Assembly: GCA_022560555.1 (NCBI GenBank)
Contig: JADFSZ010000021.1
Coordinates: 1-14,437 of the forward strand
DNA length: 14,437 bases
DNA from: PVC group bacterium
GTDB lineage: Bacteria; GCA-001730085; JADFSZ01
Reading direction: 5' to 3'
The notes under the pieces are model-generated. The model did no database searches. It saw nothing but the letters and a program-made list of their open reading frames with translations, and had not been told where the DNA came from. The stretch's first letter is position 1, and every line of letters starts with the position of its first letter. Both the position numbers and the translations under genes were made by a program. Shown piece after piece: positions 328-11,534 of the stretch.

Positions 328-342
328 GCAAACCAAATGCCA
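328..342 (-). promoter_or_regulatory. Sigma-54 (-24/-12) promoter for the truncated pilin-like gene
   Basis: The reverse strand reads TGGCATTTGGTTTGC, preceded by T and followed by G. GG and GC sit at the canonical spacing of the TGGCAC-N5-TTGC consensus. The site is intergenic, about 50 nt upstream of ATG 279 and downstream of the terminator at 469-497. Confidence 0.6.
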
Positions 343-427
343 AGACAGCATTATTGAAGTTACGCCTTTGAAATAAATGTGTTATACGATTCACTGTTTA
401 GTGATTTAGTTCAAATAGTCAAAATTT

Positions 428-460
428 CTTTACAATATGAGTAAAATTGTTTTTACATCA
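428..460 (-). promoter_or_regulatory. Conserved upstream element (candidate enhancer/UAS for a sigma-54 activator), copy A
   Basis: Plus-strand CTTTACAATATGAGTAAAATTGTTTTTACATCA. It matches 10481-10513 at 26 of 33 positions without gaps, including 12/12 at CTTTACAATATG. It contains the inverted repeat ACAAT-N9-ATTGT. It lies 85 nt upstream of the -24 element at 342. Confidence 0.4.
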
Positions 461-468
461 AGGCTCAC

Positions 469-497
469 ATAAAAACACCCGTCTCAAAAAACGGGTG
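469..497 (-). terminator. Rho-independent terminator of the 604..1023 pilin-like gene
   Basis: The reverse strand reads CACCCGT-TTTTTGAG-ACGGGTG-TTTTTAT: a 7-bp GC-rich stem, an 8-nt loop and a T5 tract. The T tract exists only in the minus-strand reading. Confidence 0.7.
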
Positions 498-603
498 CCT
501 GATACATTGATTTCAACGCGGTCCTGCCTTACCTCCCCATACCTGGAACCCAAAATATCTCGTGCCTGGATTTTGAGAAGCGCAGCTTATCGGAAGACCA
601 GGC

Positions 604-1050: not shown

Positions 1051-1065
1051 GCAATACCCATGCCA
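1051..1065 (-). promoter_or_regulatory. Sigma-54 (-24/-12) promoter for the 604..1023 pilin-like gene
   Basis: The reverse strand reads TGGCATGGGTATTGC, preceded by T and followed by G, with canonical GG/GC spacing. It lies in the 65-nt gap between the glycosyltransferase stop (1089) and ATG 1023. It is embedded in a 7-bp inverted repeat, AATTGGC (1044-1050) / GCCAATT (1062-1068). Confidence 0.6.
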
Positions 1066-1997: not shown

Positions 1998-2100
1998 GAT
2001 TCAGAGAAATCTAAGGATTTTCTTTAGTTATCTTTTGTTCTATCAATTACTTATAGTTCTAACCGAGTTTGACAAAAAGCTAAATGTATGCTTATTTTTG

Positions 2101-2128
2101 TTGACATTTGTCGTTTTTTTGCTACACT
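2101..2128 (+). promoter_or_regulatory. Candidate sigma-70 promoter for the kinase/regulator/TPR operon
   Basis: TTGACA (2101-2106), a 16-nt spacer, then TACACT (2123-2128), about 40 nt upstream of ATG 2169. Sequence match only. The -10 element matches 4 of 6. Confidence 0.35.
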
Positions 2129-2168
2129 TATTAGTTCTCGTTTCACAAAATCAACAACACTCGCACTT

Positions 2169-4286
2169 ATGGTAAAAAAAATCAACATATTAGCTGTCGA
2201 TGAGGATAAAGGGATACAGCAATTTATCTCGGACATACTCACGGATGAAGGCTTTAATGTCCAAACAGCTAATAATGGTCTCGAAGCCCTGGAACGGCTC
2301 AACAAACACACCTTTGATTTCGTCTTAACCGATCTCGACATGCAACATATGAATGGGATGGAACTTTTGGAAGAAATACAATCCAAAAATTGCAAAACAT
2401 GCGTCATCATCATGACCGGGTCCGGCTCCATCACAAGCGCCGTACAAGCCATAAAAAAGGGAGCTTATGACTATTTAACCAAGCCTTTGGATGCCGCATC
2501 CATTCTTGTCACAATCAAAAACGCCCTCAATCAAATGGATCTGGAGAACAAAGACATCCATCTTGAAAGCGAGCTCAAAAAAACACGACACCTTGAATCC
2601 GTCAGTATCGAATTGAGCCGGCAAGTTGATAATTTATTTTACCTGAATTCTTTAACGTCTGCAATCAGCGCATTCACCGATATGTCCGAACTCCAAAATT
2701 TTATCCTGGAAAACTGCAAAAAAATTCTTGGTTCACAACTCGCGTCGATTTTCCTTATGGACGATCAAGATCCGGAATATCTCGTCCTCACAGCCGTCTC
2801 CGGGGAGCACGACCCTTCGGTGATCGGAACACGGCAAAAAGTCGGCCAGGGGATCTCTGGGCGTGTCGCATTAGAAAAGAAACCCCTTCTCGTGCGTGAC
2901 ATTGACAAGGAAGCCTCTCAAATTCAAAAAACATCCCCAAGATACGGATCGAAATCTTTTATGTGTGTGCCCCTTCTTACACAAAATAAATTAATCGGGA
3001 TCATCAACGTAACAAACAAAAAAGACGAAAAATCCTTCACCCCAAGCGACGTAAATCTACTAGCCATTTTAGCGGGGCACGCCGCTAGTGCGATTGCGAA
3101 TATTCGCCATTTTAATTTGCTTGATGATTTAAATAAGAATCTCACAAAACAGATCGATCATGCCACACAAGAACTTGTTCAAAAAAACCAGGACTTGTCA
3201 GCCTTAAAGCAGTACAACGAGAACATTATCAAAAGTCTTTCTATCGGTCTTATTGTTTTTAACAAAAAATTATCCATCACATATGCCAATAACGCCATCA
3301 AAACTTTGCTCAATCTTGAGAAATTTCTTCCTAAAGACTTTGCTATATCCGATTTAGGCTTGTTTGATGCGACAACATGGAATACTGTTTATCACCAGGT
3401 CATTCATAAGCAAACGACGAAACGTATAGGGCATTATGAATACACCCAAAAAAACCGCAACCCTCTTTACCTCGATTTTATCATCAGCCCTTTTTTCGAC
3501 GAAAAAGGCGAGCTGATCGGCGGGATTCTTGTTGTCAATAATGTCACGGAACAGATCATAATCGAGCAAAAACTGGCCCACTCTGAACGGCTCGCGATTG
3601 TCGGAAAACTCGCGGCAAAAGTGGCTCACGAGCTGAATAATCCTTTAGACGGAATTTTACGATTCGTCAACCTGACCCTCTCTAAAATTCCCAAAGACAC
3701 CTCTAACGAAGAGATACTGGACTACTTAAACGAGTCAAAAGCCGGACTGATTCGCATGGCGCAAATTATCAGTTCGCTCCTTGAATTTTCACGCGGCATG
3801 CAGCCGTCAAGCGAAAAAAACCAAATCAATGAAACAATCCGGGACGCTGTTAAGGCAATGAGCCCCACGGCCATGAGCCATAATATACGCATCATTACTC
3901 AACTAAGCGATGGGCTTCCAAAGGTTTTAACCGGAAATCTTTTTCAAGTGTTAACCAACTTAATTAAAAACGCCATAGATTCAATCGATAAAAACGGGAC
4001 GGTTACAATTCGAACAAGTTCGGCACAGGATGATATCCTCCTTGAGATTCAGGATACAGGCAAAGGCATTCCGGCTCATATTCTCAAACAAATTTTTGAT
4101 CCATTTTTTACCACAAAACCCAAGGGGAAGGGAAGCGGTCTCGGCTTATCCATTTGCATGGGAATCATTGAAAAGTGCCGCGGAAAAATAGAAGTAAAGA
4201 GCATTGAAAACGAAGGAACAACATTCACGATCATTTTGCCCGCGGATCATGCGGGAGTTCAAACACTAAAATCAGGAGTAAACTAA
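2169..4286 (+). CDS. Soluble hybrid sensor histidine kinase, REC-GAF-PAS-HisKA-HATPase_c
   Basis: Receiver: INILAVDED...VLTDLDM...IIMTGSGS...YLTKP. GAF-like block: GQGISGRVALEKKPLLVRD ... CVPLLTQNKLIGIINV. PAS-like block around SIGLIVFNKKLSITYANNA. H-box VAHELNNPL, N-box LTNLIKNAIDS, G1 DTGKGI, F FDPFFTTK, G2 GSGLGLSI. No hydrophobic transmembrane segments. Start moved to ATG 2169 (MVKKINILAVDED) because the track extension 2088-2168 overlaps the candidate promoter and reads as non-protein-like sequence. Confidence 0.9.
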   Translation: MVKKINILAVDEDKGIQQFISDILTDEGFNVQTANNGLEALERLNKHTFDFVLTDLDMQHMNGMELLEEIQSKNCKTCVIIMTGSGSITSAVQAIKKGAYDYLTKPLDAASILVTIKNALNQMDLENKDIHLESELKKTRHLESVSIELSRQVDNLFYLNSLTSAISAFTDMSELQNFILENCKKILGSQLASIFLMDDQDPEYLVLTAVSGEHDPSVIGTRQKVGQGISGRVALEKKPLLVRDIDKEASQIQKTSPRYGSKSFMCVPLLTQNKLIGIINVTNKKDEKSFTPSDVNLLAILAGHAASAIANIRHFNLLDDLNKNLTKQIDHATQELVQKNQDLSALKQYNENIIKSLSIGLIVFNKKLSITYANNAIKTLLNLEKFLPKDFAISDLGLFDATTWNTVYHQVIHKQTTKRIGHYEYTQKNRNPLYLDFIISPFFDEKGELIGGILVVNNVTEQIIIEQKLAHSERLAIVGKLAAKVAHELNNPLDGILRFVNLTLSKIPKDTSNEEILDYLNESKAGLIRMAQIISSLLEFSRGMQPSSEKNQINETIRDAVKAMSPTAMSHNIRIITQLSDGLPKVLTGNLFQVLTNLIKNAIDSIDKNGTVTIRTSSAQDDILLEIQDTGKGIPAHILKQIFDPFFTTKPKGKGSGLGLSICMGIIEKCRGKIEVKSIENEGTTFTIILPADHAGVQTLKSGVN

Positions 4287-4288
4287 AC

Positions 4289-5677
4289 ATGCATAAAAAT
4301 AAAATTCTCATAGTCGATGATGATTTGATTATCAGGAAATCTTTGGCAGCTATGCTGAATGAAGAGAACTACGAAACCCAAGTTGCCGCCGATAGTCACG
4401 AAGCTCTGGAGCACCTTAAAAACACCCAAATAGATCTTATTTTGTCAGACATCAGCATGCCGGGAATGTCCGGGATTGATCTCTTAAAGGAAGTTAAAAA
4501 GTTTCATTCACACGTTATCGTGATCTTGATCACGGGTTATGGAACGATTGAAAATGCCGTTGAGTCTATAAAATACGGAGCGTATGACTATATCACGAAA
4601 CCGCTTCTGGATGAGCAGGTCAAAGTGGTGATACAGCGATCTTTAGAACAACAAGCTCTCAAAAACGAAAACGAAAAATTAAAAGAACAAATTCTACAAA
4701 TCAGCGAATCGGGAGACTCCCTGCTTTTGGGCCAGGATTACAAATTCCAAAAGATTCTCGAACTGGTTCATACCGTGGCTGATTCCAACGCCACCATTCT
4801 TATTACCGGGGAAAGCGGAACCGGAAAATCAATGATCGCAAGATCCATTCATAAATTTTCCGGACGGGCAAGTCAGCCCTTTGTTGAAGTCAGCTGCGGG
4901 ATGCTCTCGGAAACTCTTCTTGAATCCGAGCTTTTCGGCCACGTCAAAGGATCCTTTACAGGGGCTCTCAATGACAAACTTGGCAAGTTTTCCATGGCAG
5001 ACAAAGGAACCATTTTTCTGGATGAAATTGCCGTAGCCTCCCCGGCGTTACAACTAAAGCTCCTTAGAGTTCTGCAGGATCAAAAATTTGAAAGTGTCGG
5101 GGGCACAGAAACTATTGAAGTAGACACACGCGTGGTCGCGGCAACCAACCACGACCTTCAAAAGGAAGTCCACGAAAATAGATTTCGCAAAGATCTCTTT
5201 TACCGGCTCAATGTGATATCCATTCATATCCCTCCCCTGCGTGAACGTATAACAGACGTCAAAATTCTTGCCCACCATTTTCTCGAAAAATTTTGCAAGC
5301 AGAACAATAAAGATATTCATGAATTTTCACCTGATGCTATGACGGAGCTTCATAATTATACATGGCCGGGAAATATCCGTGAGCTTGAGAACGTTGTTGA
5401 GCGTGCTGTTGTTCTTTGCAAAGAAAAGATAATCACCCAAAGCTATCTCTCCATCGTTAAAGAAACAAACTTAACGGACACTCTTTTGTCCTCAACCGAC
5501 AACATCAAATCCCTCGAAGACTCTCTCGCCGGACCTGAAAGGAAAATTATCAAAATGGCGCTGGACAAAAATCATTGGAACCGTCAAGGTACGGCCCATA
5601 TGCTCGGAATAAACCGCACTACTTTGTTTCATAAAATGAAAAAATACAATCTCCATAAAAACCAGGGGGACATATGA
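4289..5677 (+). CDS. prsR: Sigma-54-dependent response regulator / enhancer-binding protein (NtrC/AtoC family; PrsR-like)
   Basis: REC: ILIVDDD...ILSDISMPG...ILITGYG...YITKP. AAA+ sigma-54 interaction domain: Walker A GESGTGKS, ESELFGH, GAFTGA-type loop GSFTGA, Walker B GTIFLDEI, RFRKDLFYRL. C-terminal Fis-type HTH: NRQGTAHMLGINRTTLFHKMKKY. It starts 2 nt after the kinase stop. The symbol is assigned from context (adjacent PrsT-like lipoprotein, exosortase locus), not from a search. Confidence 0.93.
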   Translation: MHKNKILIVDDDLIIRKSLAAMLNEENYETQVAADSHEALEHLKNTQIDLILSDISMPGMSGIDLLKEVKKFHSHVIVILITGYGTIENAVESIKYGAYDYITKPLLDEQVKVVIQRSLEQQALKNENEKLKEQILQISESGDSLLLGQDYKFQKILELVHTVADSNATILITGESGTGKSMIARSIHKFSGRASQPFVEVSCGMLSETLLESELFGHVKGSFTGALNDKLGKFSMADKGTIFLDEIAVASPALQLKLLRVLQDQKFESVGGTETIEVDTRVVAATNHDLQKEVHENRFRKDLFYRLNVISIHIPPLRERITDVKILAHHFLEKFCKQNNKDIHEFSPDAMTELHNYTWPGNIRELENVVERAVVLCKEKIITQSYLSIVKETNLTDTLLSSTDNIKSLEDSLAGPERKIIKMALDKNHWNRQGTAHMLGINRTTLFHKMKKYNLHKNQGDI

Positions 5678-8652
5678 AAATCCGAATTCCGGCACGGATC
5701 AATCAAAAAACATTTATTTTGATACTCACCGGTCTTTTATGTTTTTCAGGGTGCTCGAAAAAAGCAAGCGGGTCCTTCAAAAGTCACATGGAAACAGGAA
5801 GAATTTATGCGAAAATTAAAAAATACAGTGAAGCGATTAGAGAGTACAAGTCAGCCCTTCTGCTCAGGCCCGAGTCCGCTGAAATCCTCTTTCTCATCGG
5901 CCAAGCGTTTCGAAACACCAACGACTTCACTGAAGCTCAAGAATATCTGGAAAAATGCTTAGAGTTAAGTCCCAGTCACTCCTTGGCCACACTTGAGCTG
6001 GGTTATTGCCACTTAGCCAAGGGGGAATCTGAAATGGCATCAGAAAGGGCTCTGCTGGTTATCCAAAACAATCCGGACAACGCGGATGCTTACATACTTT
6101 TAGGTCAAATCAACTTAAAACTTCAAAACAGCGGGGAGGCTACTAAATATTTCCAAAAGGCCGTGTCAATGTCCCCTCAACTCATCGATCCCCGACTCAG
6201 CCTGATTCGTTTGCATTCACTTGAACTTGATTACGACAAGGCTACTAAAGAAGCCTTGGCCATCATCAATGATATCGACAAGGAAAATCTCCAAGCCCGA
6301 TTTCTTCTCGCGGACATTTATGCCCTTCAGGAAAATTTTGAAGAGGCCTATAAAGTGGTTAATAAAATCCTGGAATTAGCGCCGGATAACCTTATGGCTC
6401 ATTTCAGCAAAGCCAACATGGCTTTCTTTCAAAAAAAATATGATACAGCTTTAGAAATTTCCGAAGAAATTCTCAGGAAAAATAGAAATTACATCCCCGC
6501 ATCCTACCTTAAAGGGAATATTTATTTTGAAAAGCAAGAATTTGATGAGGCTATCGTTATTTACCAACGTATCATTTCATCGAAACCTGATTGGTCAGAG
6601 GCGCATTTGCGTCTCGCTATCGCGTTGGCTAACACGGGGCAGATGCAGCAGGCTATTCGTGAATTCCGTCAAACATTAAACACAAATCCACAAAATATCC
6701 AAGCAGGATACTTTCTCACAAAGATATATCTTCAAAACAGCTGGCATGACGAGGCAGTAAGTTTAACAAAGGACTTGCTCGAATATTATCCGGACAATAC
6801 CAAACTTCTACGAACTCTCGCCATGACTTATATTGCCATGGGCCGTATTGATCAAGCTCAAGCCGTTTTTAAAGACATCATAGAGATTGATCCGGATTTT
6901 TCCAAAGGCTTTCTTAATCTTGCCGTTCTCGAACTTACGCAGAAAAATTCCGCAAGCGCTATTGACAACGCCAAAAAAGCAATTGATCGGGACCAAAATA
7001 ATCTCGGAGCCTATAATGTCTTGGGACTTGCCTATCTGCAGTCCGGGGATTCTCAACTTGCCATTGAAACTTTTAAAATCGCAAAGAATATCGACCCGGA
7101 TTTTATTCCTGCTTATATAAATTTAGCGCGCATCTACATCGCTCTGCGCGATTATAATTCAGCCAATGCCGAATACAAAGATGTCCTCAATCAAAATCCG
7201 AATGCCATCGAGGCTCTTTTCGGACTCGCCCTTATGAGCGAAAAGAATAGGGAATTTGATACAGCCATCAAAACCTACAACCAAATTCTTAAGATCAATC
7301 CGGACGCAGCTAACGCTCATTTCAAGCTTGCCACCCTTCACCATGAACGGAAACATCTCTCAGAAGCCCAAAGGCACCTTAAAGAGGTCACGAGAATAAT
7401 CCCGACAAACAATTATGCGCGCATGCTGCTTTCAAGCATTTACCTAAAGGAAAATCAGATTCCTCTCATGAAAGAACAGCTGGAGAGCATCATTCAAAAC
7501 GATCCAAATAATCAGACCGCTTTCATTCAATTGGGGCTCGCACATCTTTATCAGGGAAATATTGAGAACGCCGTTCAAGCTTTTCTTACAGCGGGACAAA
7601 ACCTTGGTAATCCCTACCAGGGACAAATTGACCAAGCCCTTGCCTGGCTTTCTTACATGCAAAATGATCTGGAAGCATCTCTTGATTTTAGTGAAAAAGC
7701 CATCCGTCGCCTCACTGACAAAGTTTATCCGGCCATCGTTAAAGCCAATATCCTTATGCTCAATGATCAGACGGACGAAGCCGTTAGTGAAATTTCTAAA
7801 AGCACAAGTATTTTACCCATGGATAAGGACTATTACTTGAAGTTTGCCGATCATTTAAAAGATCTCCCTCAAAATCAATCAAAAATTTTGGTGGCGACCA
7901 ACAATGCCATTACTTTTGCTTCATTTCAATGGTATGACCTCGCAACATCCAAATATCGGGAAGCTCTTGCTCTTGCGCCGGAACAACCTTTCCTTAAAAA
8001 AATGCTCGCGACAATCCTTGCCCTCACCGACAAAACAGATGAAGCTCTCAGTCTTTACAAGGATCTGTTATCCAGCGGTGAAACACCCCAGCTCCACCAA
8101 AATATCGGCAATATTTATATGACCCACGCGCTTCCGGCTAAAGCTATTCTTCATTTTAAAAAGGCCATCGAGCTCGCGCCGGACAACGCATCCGCGTGGA
8201 TGCAACTTGGCATGGTGTATGAGACTCAAAATGACCCGAAAAATGCGCTAGCTAGCTATGAGGAAGTCATTGAACTCGCCCCTAAAAATTCGGCCGCCCT
8301 CAATAATGCGGCTTGGCTTCTCGCGACAGACAATATTGATCTCGATAAAGCTTTGGAGCACGCGCTCGCGGCAGAAAGCTTCTCAAAAACGGAAGGAAGT
8401 ATTAAAGACACCCTTGGATGGGTTTATTATCTTAAAGGGGAAATGAGACGGGCCGAAAACAAAATGATCGAAGCTATTGAGCTTATGCCTGACCATCCTT
8501 CTCTTCATTACCACTTAGGAGCCATCCTTCATCATAAAGGCGATCTCAAAACCGCACGTCAAGAGTTAAATACCGCTTTGGGGATGGGGACCGATTTTGC
8601 CGACTACGATAAAGCCCTCGAGTTGATCAAGAGGATTGATCAGGCTCTCTGA
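5674..8652 (+). CDS. prsT: Large TPR-repeat lipoprotein (PEP-CTERM system PrsT-like)
   Basis: Lipoprotein signal MKIRIPARINQKTFILILTGLLCFSG|C. More than 20 TPR-like 34-aa repeats run throughout (recurring A..Y/F..AL...P.N..A patterns). Its ATG overlaps the regulator stop (ATGA at 5674-5677), and GGGGGA lies 4 nt upstream. The size and TPR-lipoprotein architecture next to a sigma-54 regulator match the described PrsT family. Confidence 0.88.
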   Translation: MKIRIPARINQKTFILILTGLLCFSGCSKKASGSFKSHMETGRIYAKIKKYSEAIREYKSALLLRPESAEILFLIGQAFRNTNDFTEAQEYLEKCLELSPSHSLATLELGYCHLAKGESEMASERALLVIQNNPDNADAYILLGQINLKLQNSGEATKYFQKAVSMSPQLIDPRLSLIRLHSLELDYDKATKEALAIINDIDKENLQARFLLADIYALQENFEEAYKVVNKILELAPDNLMAHFSKANMAFFQKKYDTALEISEEILRKNRNYIPASYLKGNIYFEKQEFDEAIVIYQRIISSKPDWSEAHLRLAIALANTGQMQQAIREFRQTLNTNPQNIQAGYFLTKIYLQNSWHDEAVSLTKDLLEYYPDNTKLLRTLAMTYIAMGRIDQAQAVFKDIIEIDPDFSKGFLNLAVLELTQKNSASAIDNAKKAIDRDQNNLGAYNVLGLAYLQSGDSQLAIETFKIAKNIDPDFIPAYINLARIYIALRDYNSANAEYKDVLNQNPNAIEALFGLALMSEKNREFDTAIKTYNQILKINPDAANAHFKLATLHHERKHLSEAQRHLKEVTRIIPTNNYARMLLSSIYLKENQIPLMKEQLESIIQNDPNNQTAFIQLGLAHLYQGNIENAVQAFLTAGQNLGNPYQGQIDQALAWLSYMQNDLEASLDFSEKAIRRLTDKVYPAIVKANILMLNDQTDEAVSEISKSTSILPMDKDYYLKFADHLKDLPQNQSKILVATNNAITFASFQWYDLATSKYREALALAPEQPFLKKMLATILALTDKTDEALSLYKDLLSSGETPQLHQNIGNIYMTHALPAKAILHFKKAIELAPDNASAWMQLGMVYETQNDPKNALASYEEVIELAPKNSAALNNAAWLLATDNIDLDKALEHALAAESFSKTEGSIKDTLGWVYYLKGEMRRAENKMIEAIELMPDHPSLHYHLGAILHHKGDLKTARQELNTALGMGTDFADYDKALELIKRIDQAL

Positions 8653-8659
8653 TCTTCTT

Positions 8660-8977
8660 TTAATCCTGATTGACAAGCTCTTCGATTTGATTTCGATGAG
8701 AATACTGCATGCCCTGAAACTGAATCCCGATTTTATACTGTTCGCCATATGGCATACTCGCGACCCAGGCTACACAAGTCATAAGCTTTACAGGATATTC
8801 AGAAAAATCAAAGGCAATGGTCATCGGAATTTTTAAGGATTTTGCCAAAAAATGATTGGCAATAAAACAGAGTCCGCCCACACTAAGGTCTTGGGTAAGC
8901 ACACCATGGACGACACTATCCAATTGATATTTGACGGGAATTTTGACGGGTTTTCTTAGGGCTTGACGTCTTTCCAT
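8660..8977 (-). CDS. Stand-alone PilZ-domain protein (predicted c-di-GMP receptor), 105 aa
   Basis: Both PilZ signature motifs are present: RRQALR (RxxxR) near the N-terminus and DLSVGG (D/NxSxxG) about 25 residues later. GAGGT lies upstream of ATG 8977. Confidence 0.85.
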   Translation of the reverse strand: MERRQALRKPVKIPVKYQLDSVVHGVLTQDLSVGGLCFIANHFLAKSLKIPMTIAFDFSEYPVKLMTCVAWVASMPYGEQYKIGIQFQGMQYSHRNQIEELVNQD

Positions 8978-9056
8978 AAGGGCTTACCTCATTCGCGTAT
9001 ATCATAACACAATCCACAAAGAGAGTAAATAACAGCAGAGAGACAAGCGCTTTGAT

Positions 9057-9791
9057 TTACACTCTCTGTGATGCAATTTTATTGTTTTTTCTTGAAAAAA
9101 CTTTTAATTTTCTCATTTTTTTATTCTTGCTAAACAGTCGATCTCCAAGAATCATTTTTAAACATGTTCTAATAGCAATCAAAAAATCCGTAAACCAACC
9201 GGCGCGCTTGATATAGGCCAGATCATACGTTAATTTATTCCTCGCGTCATCAAGAGTCTCATCGGCCTTTTGAAGCACCTGTGCCAGCCCCGTGATCCCG
9301 GGTTTAATCTGCATACGCTTCTGATAATCAGGCAAATCACGGGTTAATTTATTCACAAAGAACGGCCGCTCAGGCCGGGGTCCGATAATGCTCATGTCCC
9401 CAATGAGCACATTGTATAGCTGAGGCAATTCATCCAAATGAGATTTTCTGAGAAATTGGCCGAACTTTGTTATCCTAGGATCCTCCCCTACCGATGCCCA
9501 CACGGGGCCAGTTTTTTCTTCAGCGTCTAGGCGCATGCTCCTGAGCTTGTAAATGTGAAAGATCTCGCCATCCAATCCAACACGCTCCTGAGAATAAAAG
9601 GCGGCCCCGGGGCTTGTCTTTCTCACAATGAAAGCCAGAAGAAACGTCATCGGAACCGTTAACGGGAGCGTCAGAACAACAACCGCAATATCAACCGCCC
9701 GCTTGACATTCGCAAATTGCACCCGGACGTATCGAATGAGGATTCCGCCCAATCCGCTTGAAATTAATATAATGCTGCTTGGTTCCGGCAT
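9057..9791 (-). CDS. Small (monotopic-type) phosphoglycosyl transferase / bacterial sugar transferase (PF02397-like, polyprenyl-phosphate hexose-1-phosphate transferase)
   Basis: KRAVDIAVVVLTLPLTVPMTFLLAFIVRKTSPGAAFYSQERVGLDGEIFHIYKLRSM ... DELPQLYNVLIGDMSIIGPRPERP ... KPGITGLAQV: the canonical sugar-transferase core. AAGGGAA Shine-Dalgarno at 9797-9803 (reverse strand), 5 nt before ATG 9791. It also carries an unusual N-terminal PEP-TM extension and a basic C-terminal tail (see findings). Confidence 0.93.
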   Translation of the reverse strand: MPEPSSIILISSGLGGILIRYVRVQFANVKRAVDIAVVVLTLPLTVPMTFLLAFIVRKTSPGAAFYSQERVGLDGEIFHIYKLRSMRLDAEEKTGPVWASVGEDPRITKFGQFLRKSHLDELPQLYNVLIGDMSIIGPRPERPFFVNKLTRDLPDYQKRMQIKPGITGLAQVLQKADETLDDARNKLTYDLAYIKRAGWFTDFLIAIRTCLKMILGDRLFSKNKKMRKLKVFSRKNNKIASQRV

Positions 9792-9799
9792 GATCTTTC

Positions 9800-9941
9800 C
9801 CTTAAAATGGATTTTTTCCTTAAAACAGCTTTGTTATTAAAATGCTTTTTTATTGATTGAAATATTTTTCATTAAAAATAATTTGTCCTTAAAAAAGCTT
9901 TTTCATTAAAACAATTTATCCTTAAAAAAGAATTCTTAAAT
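9800..9941. repeat. Degenerate ~17-bp tandem repeat array (about 9 units, with a ~34-bp higher-order unit)
   Basis: Plus-strand units begin with CCTTAAAA at 9800, 9818, 9887 and 9920. Related variants are TATTAAAA at 9835, GATTGAAA at 9855, CATTAAAA at 9870 and 9904, and TCTTAAAT at 9934. Each is followed by 3-5 nt and a T tract. CCTTAAAAAAG is identical at 9887 and 9920. The array fills the gap between the PilZ stop (9922) and the sugar-transferase start (9791). Confidence 0.6.
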
Positions 9942-10314
9942 CTTCATCAAAACTCACGGCTATGCCCACTTTACGGGTCATGACATCGTTTTCTTGATCC
10001 TCCTCAACAACATCAGTAACTCTTACCACTTTGGCAACAGCTTCTAATTTTGGACTCTTGAAAACGTTATTCAGCCCAAACGAGTTCAGGCTCTCCGGAG
10101 TATCAAAAACGATCTTCAGCTTCATGTCCGGTTTGATTCGGGTATCTGAAATGGATTCAAAATACGCCCCGCCTGTGCTTACATTACGCGTTTTGGCAAA
10201 ATTGATAGAGCAATCACGCGTATCCTCTTCGAGAATTTCAAATGCAATCGGCAGATTCAAATCAAGCCTTCGGTATTTACGACGATCCTTTTCACTGGGT
10301 TTAGAATCAATCAT
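9922..10314 (-). CDS. Stand-alone PilZ-domain protein (predicted c-di-GMP receptor), 130 aa
   Basis: RRKYRR (RxxxR) followed by NVSTGG (D/NxSxxG) at the expected spacing. It is the first gene downstream of the sigma-54 promoter at 10409-10424. Confidence 0.85.
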   Translation of the reverse strand: MIDSKPSEKDRRKYRRLDLNLPIAFEILEEDTRDCSINFAKTRNVSTGGAYFESISDTRIKPDMKLKIVFDTPESLNSFGLNNVFKSPKLEAVAKVVRVTDVVEEDQENDVMTRKVGIAVSFDEDLRILF

Positions 10315-10408: not shown

Positions 10409-10424
10409 TGCAATGATTATGCCA
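10409..10424 (-). promoter_or_regulatory. Sigma-54 (-24/-12) promoter for the PilZ / sugar transferase unit
   Basis: The reverse strand reads TGGCATAATCATTGCA, preceded by T, with canonical GG/GC spacing and a TTGCA -12 box. The site is intergenic, about 95 nt upstream of ATG 10314. Confidence 0.65.
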
Positions 10425-10480
10425 ACTCTGTATGGTGCTCTGATCAAGTTGAATTATCTATAATCTTTTATTTATAAGTA

Positions 10481-10513
10481 CTTTACAATATGCTAAAAAT
10501 TGTCGTAAAATCA
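10481..10513 (-). promoter_or_regulatory. Conserved upstream element (candidate enhancer/UAS), copy B
   Basis: Plus-strand CTTTACAATATGCTAAAAATTGTCGTAAAATCA, 26/33 identical to 428-460, with the same ACAAT-N9-ATTGT inverted repeat. It lies 56 nt upstream of the -24 element at 10424. Confidence 0.4.
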
Positions 10514-10670
10514 GATATACACTCTGAGTATGTTCACTTTAATGAACGTAGTGACTCCAAATATGGGTACAAATCATAGACATGACACTGCTTATATGTA
10601 AAATAGACCTCGTTTGATTTATTTAACATTTGTTGGCAGGGGCCTCCAAACTATAAGAAATACAAGCCTC

Positions 10671-11534
10671 TTAGGAAGTGTTTTTTGTCGCCATTAATGG
10701 GCGTAGCCACTTAATCCCTAAAAGGGATTCAAAGAAAAATAACAGAAGATACGCCACCCCAAAAATAAGGAGTCCCGAAAAGTCATGAAAAAAACCTGTC
10801 GCGGCCTCGACCCCCCAACGATTGGCAATGAGACAAAGAAGAACAATCCGTGCGACATTGGCAATAATGGCCGTAGGAAAGGACACAAAAAATATCAGGA
10901 TTTTTTTTAGTCCTGTCCCACGCGCTAAATAAGCAACAATGGCCCCTAAAGCTAGAAGGGAGATAAGAGACCGTAATCCGCTACACACGTTACCAACGGT
11001 TATCGAGGCATTCATAAAATGAATATGACTCCCATCCTGAACGCAGTAAACCCCCAATGTTCTTACCATACTTACGGCACAATCTGCCGCGAACATTTTG
11101 AGTTCCAGATTAAGCTTCGCAATAACATCAAGCGGCATGGGGATCATAAAAAACAGAAAAAGAACCGGGAAGAGAAGCTTCTTAACGACTCGCGGGGAAT
11201 AAAAAAACAATAAAGCTCCAAAAATCAGCAAGAGAAATGCCAAGGCCTGGGTAAAATAAATTCTCCACACGGCACTCATAATCTGGAGCACAAAAGCACT
11301 GCCCATAAATATCCAAGCCCAAAATGCGGGATTTTCTGTACTTATTTCTCGCAGCAAATGCTTTTTTTTCCAGACGATAAATCCGGAAACAAACGGAATA
11401 AGAAACCCATGAGAATAGTAGGAATCCGGAGCCGTCCAACGATCGACCATCCAGGAAAACGTCGGCAAAAAAATAACCGCGATAAGTGCCGAAAACCACA
11501 GCCCCGTTAAGATGCTTGTTCTTGAGAAAGTCAT
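10671..11534 (-). CDS. Exosortase (EpsH/Xrt family polytopic membrane transpeptidase), compact 287-aa form
   Basis: Polytopic hydrophobic protein carrying the exosortase signature residues: DSYYSHGFLIP near the N-terminus, catalytic-type Cys in VGNVCSGLRSLISL, Arg in IANVARIV, and His in FHDFSG. Subtype (XrtA or other) cannot be assigned by eye. Confidence 0.9.
   Translation of the reverse strand: MTFSRTSILTGLWFSALIAVIFLPTFSWMVDRWTAPDSYYSHGFLIPFVSGFIVWKKKHLLREISTENPAFWAWIFMGSAFVLQIMSAVWRIYFTQALAFLLLIFGALLFFYSPRVVKKLLFPVLFLFFMIPMPLDVIAKLNLELKMFAADCAVSMVRTLGVYCVQDGSHIHFMNASITVGNVCSGLRSLISLLALGAIVAYLARGTGLKKILIFFVSFPTAIIANVARIVLLCLIANRWGVEAATGFFHDFSGLLIFGVAYLLLFFFESLLGIKWLRPLMATKNTS

Follow-up and report, generated by a model that had tools for sequence, protein, structure and literature searches.

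A shared element upstream of two sigma-54 promoters

Contig JADFSZ010000021.1 of an uncultured PVC-group bacterium was analysed over its whole length of 14,437 nt (the window; 42% GC). It encodes two prepilin-type proteins, a histidine kinase with an NtrC-family sigma-54 activator, a PrsT-like TPR lipoprotein, an exosortase and an apparent operon in which a priming sugar transferase is flanked by two PilZ-domain proteins. Two of its intergenic regions share a 33-nt element, one copy lying upstream of pilin-like gene A and the other upstream of the PilZ/sugar-transferase/PilZ operon. This shared sequence is read here, with somewhat more confidence than doubt, as the core of an upstream activating sequence (UAS, or enhancer) through which an NtrC-family activator would co-regulate pilin-like gene A and the operon. 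The two copies, the promoters and the terminator that frame the argument are as follows.

428..460, minus strand: copy 1 of the shared element, reading TGATGTAAAAACAATTTTACTCATATTGTAAAG in the direction of transcription
10481..10513, minus strand: copy 2 of the shared element, reading TGATTTTACGACAATTTTTAGCATATTGTAAAG in the direction of transcription
328..342, minus strand: sigma-54 promoter P1, TGGCATTTGGTTTGC, an exact TGGCAT-N5-TTGC driving pilin-like gene A
10410..10424, minus strand: sigma-54 promoter P2, TGGCATAATCATTGC, an exact TGGCAT-N5-TTGC driving the PilZ/sugar-transferase/PilZ operon
1051-1065, minus strand: sigma-54 promoter P3, an exact TGGCAT-N5-TTGC preceding prepilin-type gene B
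473..500, minus strand: intrinsic terminator closing pilin-like gene B, with a U run after a hairpin of -17 kcal/mol (z = -4.36)

The original prediction, made from the sequence of the window alone, had paired the two copies, and the gap-free identity of 26/33 that it gave was borne out. When both intergenic regions were subjected to 300 Markov-1 shuffles, the best 33-nt window had a mean of 20.4 identities and a maximum of 23/33, so that none of the 300 reached 26. The 20-base core CTTTACAATATGNNNAAAATTGT is found at two places only in the window even with three mismatches allowed (0.00 expected). The surroundings of the copies had been described as unalignable and are so: the flanks gave no alignment, and promoter cores and flanks have no other sequence in common. 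Both copies lie upstream of a promoter of the same orientation, at the predicted distances of 85 and 56 nt from TTGGCAT. Exact consensus promoters do occur where TTGGCAT-N6-TTGC had been proposed, with a spacing of N5 and not N6. The terminator of gene B ends 12 nt before copy 1 in the direction of transcription, and copy 1 is therefore outside the upstream transcript.

Two further similarities that had been proposed did not hold. The degenerate third copy, placed at 1116-1146 upstream of the third promoter, is at chance level, with a best local score of 7 against a shuffle mean of 8.8 and with 99% of shuffles equalling it. The TCACT/AGTGA pair, suggested as a second half-site pair, is indeed present in both regions; one or more shared inverted-repeat 5-mers turn up in 14% of shuffles, and the pair is not kept in the diverged relative L036 described below.

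The genes around these features are listed here in order of position.

279->1, minus strand: prepilin-type gene A (pilin-like), with an ATG start at about 279, truncated by the left end of the window
1023->604, minus strand: prepilin-type gene B (pilin-like)
1997->1089, minus strand: family-2 glycosyltransferase
2088-4286, plus strand: apparently soluble histidine kinase of REC-GAF-PAS type (REC-GAF-PAS-HisKA)
4289..5677, plus strand: NtrC-family sigma-54 activator (REC, AAA+, Fis-type HTH; Sigma54_activat and HTH_8 domains), the candidate activator
5674-8652, plus strand: PrsT-like TPR lipoprotein
8977->8660, minus strand: PilZ protein, last gene of the operon
9791->9057, minus strand: priming sugar transferase
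10314->9922, minus strand: PilZ protein, first gene of the operon
11534->10671, minus strand: exosortase, above the cut-off of the generic EpsH model and below that of XrtA
minus strand: HflX and a coiled-coil/TPR protein

The plus-strand kinase, activator and TPR lipoprotein form one operon with overlapping stops and starts. On the minus strand, the two PilZ-domain proteins flank the priming sugar transferase within 8660-10314 as one apparent operon, a layout which suggests control by cyclic di-GMP (c-di-GMP) over the first step of polysaccharide synthesis. A PEP-CTERM tail is absent from the products downstream of both promoters, namely a prepilin-type protein (ending ...AFWQMQ or ...STAFVLQ) and PilZ. 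P3, the promoter of pilin B, lies 23 nt past the stop codon of the glycosyltransferase, and a homologous contig (L037) has the same order of glycosyltransferase, sigma-54 promoter and pilin.

A probable 17-bp box and its conservation

A smaller unit was recognised within and around the 33 nt, of which the following instances were found.

441..457, minus strand: box 1, TGTAAAAACAATTTTAC (TGT-N8-TTTTAC), with a 98-nt spacer to TGGCAT; contains the dyad GTAAAA-N4-TTTTAC
418..434, minus strand: box 2, TGTAAAGAAATTTTGAC, in tandem at 23 bp from box 1, with one pattern mismatch and a 75-nt spacer to TGGCAT
10505..10521, minus strand: box A, TGTATATCTGATTTTAC, an exact TGT-N8-TTTTAC separated from TGGCAT by 80 nt
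10471..10487, minus strand: possible degenerate second box, TGTAAAGTACTTATAAA, a weak candidate with only its TGTAAAG start in common with box 2 and three mismatches in its 3' half

The pattern TGT-N8-TTTTAC, which was set after sites in a Vibrio plasmid (see below) and copy 1 had been viewed, has exactly two matches in the 14.4 kb when both strands are searched (0.15 expected). The two lie on the minus strand and precede TGGCAT by 98 and 80 nt. When the spacing was varied over N5-N11, no value other than N8 gave a promoter-near match in the window, except for a single N10 match that adjoins a sigma-54-like site inside the exosortase open reading frame (ORF). The pilin promoter has two tandem boxes and the PilZ-operon promoter one exact box with a TGTAAAG half-box 34 bp away; the tandem arrangement is clear in copy 1 only. 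The distal 9 nt of copy 2 belong to box A as well, the register of which differs from that of the 33-nt alignment. The gap between the box and the shared CATATTGTAAAG is about 11 nt, or one helical turn, longer in copy 2 than in copy 1.

In copy 1 the 33-nt identity takes in box 1 and the beginning of box 2; in copy 2 it takes in box A at its 3' end, what would be a decayed box, and TGTAAAG. Box 2 widens the conserved footprint past 33 nt. Several symmetries overlap here: both copies contain ACAAT-N9-ATTGT (with 4/5 in L036), both boxes contain GTA-N10-TAC, and GTAAAA-N4-TTTTAC is confined to copy 1. Of these, ACAAT-N9-ATTGT had been put forward in the original prediction. It is present in both copies as stated, although one base of its ACAAT arm is lost in L036 and TGT-N8-TTTTAC gives the better fit. 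The informative, recognised unit is probably the 17-bp box TGT-N8-TTTTAC with its partial dyad GTA-N10-TAC, and not ACAAT-N9-ATTGT.

Conservation was followed using homologues of pilin B, which led to four useful metagenomic contigs. Two of these, L033 and L035, have 98% and 96% identity with the window; L036 has diverged further (the C-terminus of pilin B being approximately 90% identical by eye), and L037 carries the glycosyltransferase-pilin junction of another species. A search of genome contigs with the window activator returned no close relative (best 42% identical), and an exact-protein look-up of the activator gave no match. Copy 1 is identical in L033 and L035. Compared with L035, none of the 199 nt at positions 280-478 is substituted, and the flanks have 5/97 and 18/276 substitutions; the whole stretch from terminator to start codon is thus unchanged, next to a difference of 5-6.5% in the coding DNA on either side. 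What acts on 280-478, be it constraint or recent recombination, covers far more than the 33-nt element.

L036 is more informative. Relative to the window, its terminator is identical at 28/28 positions and its 33-nt element at 29/33, whereas the 12 nt between terminator and element are identical at 6/12 and the spacer 344-402 at 33/59 (~56%). Box 1 is conserved at 16/17 positions and box 2, which reads TGTAAAGAGATCTTGAC, at 15/17, giving 31/34 for the boxes against 39/71 for adjacent non-box DNA (Fisher p = 1.5e-4). All four L036 substitutions within the 33 nt fall at unspecified positions of the box, and one of them breaks the ACAAT arm. P1 of L036 (TGGCACCCGGTTTGC) retains GG and GC, with only spacer and non-consensus bases varying. 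For P2, the 15-mer is identical in L039, a contig whose PilZ protein is 71% identical, and its flanks have diverged. Conservation above that of neighbouring DNA is accordingly seen for copy 1, in L036, and not for copy 2 in the more distant L039.

Two contigs from distant relatives of high GC content (L025 and L029; 68-71%) keep the synteny of histidine kinase, activator and TPR protein and, further on, of EpsI-exosortase, sigma-54-like promoter and PilZ. In both, a small PilZ-like gene follows the EpsI-exosortase (L025 17516-17697 and L029 17353-17663) behind the sigma-54-like promoters CGGCACCGGTGTTGC and GGGCACTCAGCTTGC, and an exosortase-linked, sigma-54-driven PilZ gene seems to be conserved across the lineage. 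The recognition helices of the L025 and L029 activators are nearly identical to that of the window activator (NRTTLF.KMKKY).

Comparison with known sigma-54 enhancers

A motif upstream of proteobacterial PEP-CTERM genes has been described as a predicted PrsR site, found only in Proteobacteria (Haft 2006, PMC1569441). This motif 1, drawn from an alignment of 99 sites, is 17 nt long, ends in TTTACA and is separated from the sigma-54 motif downstream of it by 32-92 nt (mean 63); its letters are given in a figure only (Haft 2006, PMC1569441). The box was therefore reconstructed from a plasmid of Vibrio alfacsensis (L038) that carries a bona fide PrsK/PrsR/PrsT/XrtA locus. The 173 kb examined contain TGTC-N6-TTTTACA at three places, in each case 62-92 nt upstream of a sigma-54 promoter. 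The genes that follow are two annotated as PEP-CTERM and one encoding an unnamed hypothetical protein. At a fourth Vibrio site the box is of N8 type (TGTTGTAATATTTTTAC) and precedes a further sigma-54 promoter by 34 nt; the C-terminus of the product of that promoter is PEP-CTERM-like. Within 20 kb either side of Photobacterium and Alteromonas PrsK/PrsR loci, no further clean examples of the box were found.

The window boxes are similar to these sites in several respects. They start with TGT and end with TTTTAC(A), have the same orientation to the sigma-54 promoter, lie tens of nt upstream (Vibrio 34-92, Haft 32-92, window boxes 75-98) and are at times repeated in tandem. The locus likewise contains an exosortase, exopolysaccharide (EPS) glycosyltransferases, a PrsT-type TPR lipoprotein and a pair of kinase and sigma-54 activator. 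Spacers of 80 nt (box A) and 75 nt (box 2) are inside the range of 32-92 nt, and that of box 1 (98 nt) is just outside it. The differences concern both the box and its setting. The window targets are pilin-like and PilZ proteins and not PEP-CTERM proteins, the window host is a PVC-group bacterium and not a member of the Proteobacteria, and the window regulator falls short of the PrsR cut-off, with no PrsK among the best 25 NCBIfam matches of its kinase. None of the window boxes is a 17-nt motif with TTTACA at its 3' end. As judged by sequence, the relation of the window box to the PEP-CTERM box is a resemblance and not a match. Because the ends and length of the motif, the targets, the PrsR and PrsK models and the taxon all depart from the PEP-CTERM case, the element was classed as a probable enhancer of the general sigma-54 kind, with possible kinship to the PrsR box.

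Upstream of Vibrio alfacsensis prsK (L038 17585-17840), the sequence GTTTTACAATGGATTGTA contains TTTTACAAT, a 9-mer that is also present in the plus strand of the window element; this could reflect autoregulation or coincidence.

With the UAS of NtrC, AtoC and ZraR, the window shares an activator of REC-AAA+-Fis HTH architecture and the placing of the sites, approximately 80-130 bp ahead of a -24/-12 promoter. A partial dyad and, in copy 1, tandem boxes may be a further likeness. The NtrC site is TGCACC-N5-GGTGCA, and the window element seems unrelated to either the NtrC or the AtoC site. Unlike in those systems, the window targets are surface and biofilm functions and not responses to nitrogen, acetoacetate or zinc.

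A PilS/PilR-type pair beside a sigma-54-dependent pilin gene is a classical arrangement (PMC8657755). The window is similar to it in that P1 and P3 precede prepilin-type genes and in that a kinase-activator pair adjoins pilin A in L035 and L036; homologues of the pilin in other lineages also have sigma-54 promoters (L034, L037) and, in L034, an upstream palindrome. It differs in that the element also precedes the PilZ/sugar-transferase operon beside the exosortase. In L034, a low-GC metagenome-assembled genome, a pilin homologue that is 55% identical heads a type IV pilus/MSH-like operon behind the sigma-54-like promoter TGGCACGAAAAATGC (9936-9950). Approximately 150 nt upstream of that promoter (9745-9780) lies a palindrome with 15-nt arms, TTGTGAAATAGGCAA / TTGCTTATTTCACAA, which differs in sequence from the window element and looks like a different enhancer for the same pilin gene family.

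Candidate activators and alternative explanations

The window activator had been predicted to be PrsR-like. It scores 414 bits on the PrsR model TIGR02915, below the cut-off of 502.6, whereas the true Vibrio PrsR scores 665.6 bits; its best NCBIfam match is AtoC, and it is thus not PrsR by NCBIfam. The TPR lipoprotein (5674-8652) reaches 400.8 bits on the PrsT model TIGR02917, above the cut-off of 312.2. PrsK (TIGR02916) is not among the best 25 of the 158 NCBIfam families matched by the kinase. The kinase (2088-4286, plus strand) has an N-terminal receiver domain and, on reading the sequence by eye with no prediction run, no obvious membrane-spanning stretch. Its input probably comes from another kinase or from a signal in the cytoplasm, in contrast to PrsK, which is membrane-bound.

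Beyond the left edge of the window, as seen in the related contigs (L035 735-3487; L036 1035-1392), a terminator comes directly after pilin A, and then a gene pair for a small histidine kinase of the membrane and another sigma-54 activator. This PilS/PilR-like pair beside pilin A is invisible in the window alone. The second activator (L035 2141-3487) is a PilR-like protein of 448 aa and REC-AAA+-HTH_8 architecture that is 39% identical to that of the window. Since a second pair of histidine kinase and activator adjoins the pilin gene, proximity fails to single out the regulator encoded in the window. A comparison of the HTH of the two candidates with that of Vibrio PrsR did not discriminate between them (17/39 and 15/39 identical, by hand count on the alignment).

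Several properties agree with an enhancer. A same-strand promoter with -24 GG and -12 GC lies downstream of the boxes, at spacers of 98, 75 and 80 nt, and enhancer-binding proteins with a DNA-binding domain are encoded nearby (window 4289-5677; L035 2141-3487). We infer from this that an activator binds the shared sequence and activates both promoters, and the choice of binder given below is of the same kind. In the mechanism envisaged, the partner histidine kinase would phosphorylate the activator, dimers of which would sit on the boxes approximately 80-130 bp upstream of the start site, where the active AAA+ ring would assemble. The ring would then contact the sigma-54 holoenzyme at -24/-12 through DNA looping and the promoter would be opened by ATP hydrolysis, turning on the pilin-like gene together with the exosortase-adjacent PilZ/priming-sugar-transferase/PilZ operon.

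A number of observations weigh against this proposal. Upstream of the third sigma-54 promoter (1051-1065), neither a box nor the element can be recognised as far as ~1300, within the glycosyltransferase coding sequence. The copy-2 orthologue in L039 has decayed to TGA-N9-ATTTAC behind an identical promoter core, no similar box was found upstream of the L025 and L029 PilZ promoters, and in the L025/L029 comparison no exact dyad of 4 nt or more recurred in four or more upstream regions. The evidence comes from two sites and one informative orthologue. Because the pattern was derived from the Vibrio sites and copy 1, the copy-2 match is the sole independent test of the box, and the strongly shared CATATTGTAAAG is explained only in part by the box model, as the start of a second box. 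With regard to the PEP-CTERM parallel, the window box (TGTA-N7-TTTTAC) exceeds the main form in Vibrio, TGTC-N6-TTTTACA, by 1 bp and lacks both the C at position 4 and the final A, T or G following instead.

The element may instead, with perhaps one chance in a few, be a similar enhancer that serves the second activator, which is PilR-like (L035 2141-3487), and not that of 4289-5677. The position of the second activator favours this: in L035 and L036 the order is pilin A, terminator, transmembrane histidine kinase and activator directly left of the window, which is the PilS/PilR-type arrangement known beside sigma-54-dependent pilin genes, and homologues of the pilin family have sigma-54 promoters as well (L034, L037). 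Copy 2, however, lies within the exosortase/PrsT-like cluster that holds the window activator; the order exosortase, sigma-54 promoter, PilZ co-occurs with orthologues of that activator in L025 and L029; and the box is PrsR-like, with the window activator outscoring the second on the PrsR model (414 versus 370 bits). These arguments are not decisive. Given the link to a PrsT-like protein and exosortase, the conserved synteny with sigma-54-driven PilZ and the higher PrsR-model score, the window activator appears slightly favoured as the binder, and the second activator beside pilin A is a serious alternative.

Readings other than an enhancer are less probable. The site might belong to a DNA-binding protein that is not an enhancer-binding protein, such as a repressor, an anti-activator, a protein of the nucleoid or one that bends DNA, or a factor responsive to c-di-GMP that modulates both promoters; this is considered unlikely. 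Conservation and recurrence reveal constraint and not the binder, CATATTGTAAAG and ACAAT-N9-ATTGT are incompletely explained by the box model, and one sigma-54 promoter, the third, lacks the element, all of which leave room for such a protein. The position and orientation of the element relative to sigma-54 promoters and its likeness to the PrsR box nevertheless fit an activator site, no IHF-like WATCAANNNNTTR match was seen by eye (no scan was run), and no further DNA-binding regulator is encoded in the window. Slightly less likely still is a functionless similarity, either a repeat specific to the lineage or the relic of a short duplication or recombination between AT-rich intergenic regions. 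The element is present in two copies only, its copy-2 orthologue in L039 is decayed, and a metagenome scan for the exact core CTTTACAATATGNNNAAAATTGT returned 15 matches, none with a sigma-54 promoter downstream; most were in seemingly unrelated coding sequence, and several represented one conserved gene family. Against a relic stand the absence of any larger visible duplication, flanks and promoter cores having no other shared sequence, the far better conservation of the element than of the neighbouring spacer in L036, and the independent, out-of-register box match in copy 2. A sigma-70-type promoter on the plus strand, antisense to the exosortase and pilin B, or an RNA element is very improbable. 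The plus strand of copy 2 does contain TTTACA-N18-TAAAAT, with 10/12 consensus positions, but copy 1 and L036 have only TTACAT (3/6) at -10, a promoter scan reports nothing there, and promoter-like matches in both regions are no commoner than in shuffles; the promoter reading is inconsistent between the copies and fits copy 2 only. The RNA-element reading was rejected, as the copies fold weakly and differently (z -0.4 to -1.2) and have no Rfam matches.

Enhancers of sigma-54 activators are a well-known class, and such a site is unsurprising in itself. An enhancer at both promoters would provide a concrete, testable cis-element, made up of two boxes whose bases are defined, for an uncharacterised two-component/sigma-54 circuit of this uncultured member of the PVC group. 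It would join three modules that are usually studied apart, namely pilin-like proteins, PilZ c-di-GMP receptors and exosortase/EPS machinery, and would suggest that the idea of the PEP-CTERM box (Haft 2006) extends past both Proteobacteria and PEP-CTERM genes. A more specific and distinctly tentative suggestion is that the PEP-CTERM box system has a diverged counterpart in the PVC group, with an AtoC-like activator linked to a PrsT-like lipoprotein and exosortase and with a box 1 bp longer, which would co-activate pilin-like proteins, PilZ receptors and the priming sugar transferase. One regulon would then couple pilus-like fibres, c-di-GMP sensing and exosortase-associated polysaccharide production.

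A fourth exact TGGCAT-N5-TTGC is present at 11228-11242 on the minus strand, inside the exosortase ORF, and a one-mismatch box, TGGAGAATTTATTTTAC, lies 8 nt upstream of it (11251-11267, minus strand). Their occurrence together is probably due to chance; the site could also be an internal promoter.

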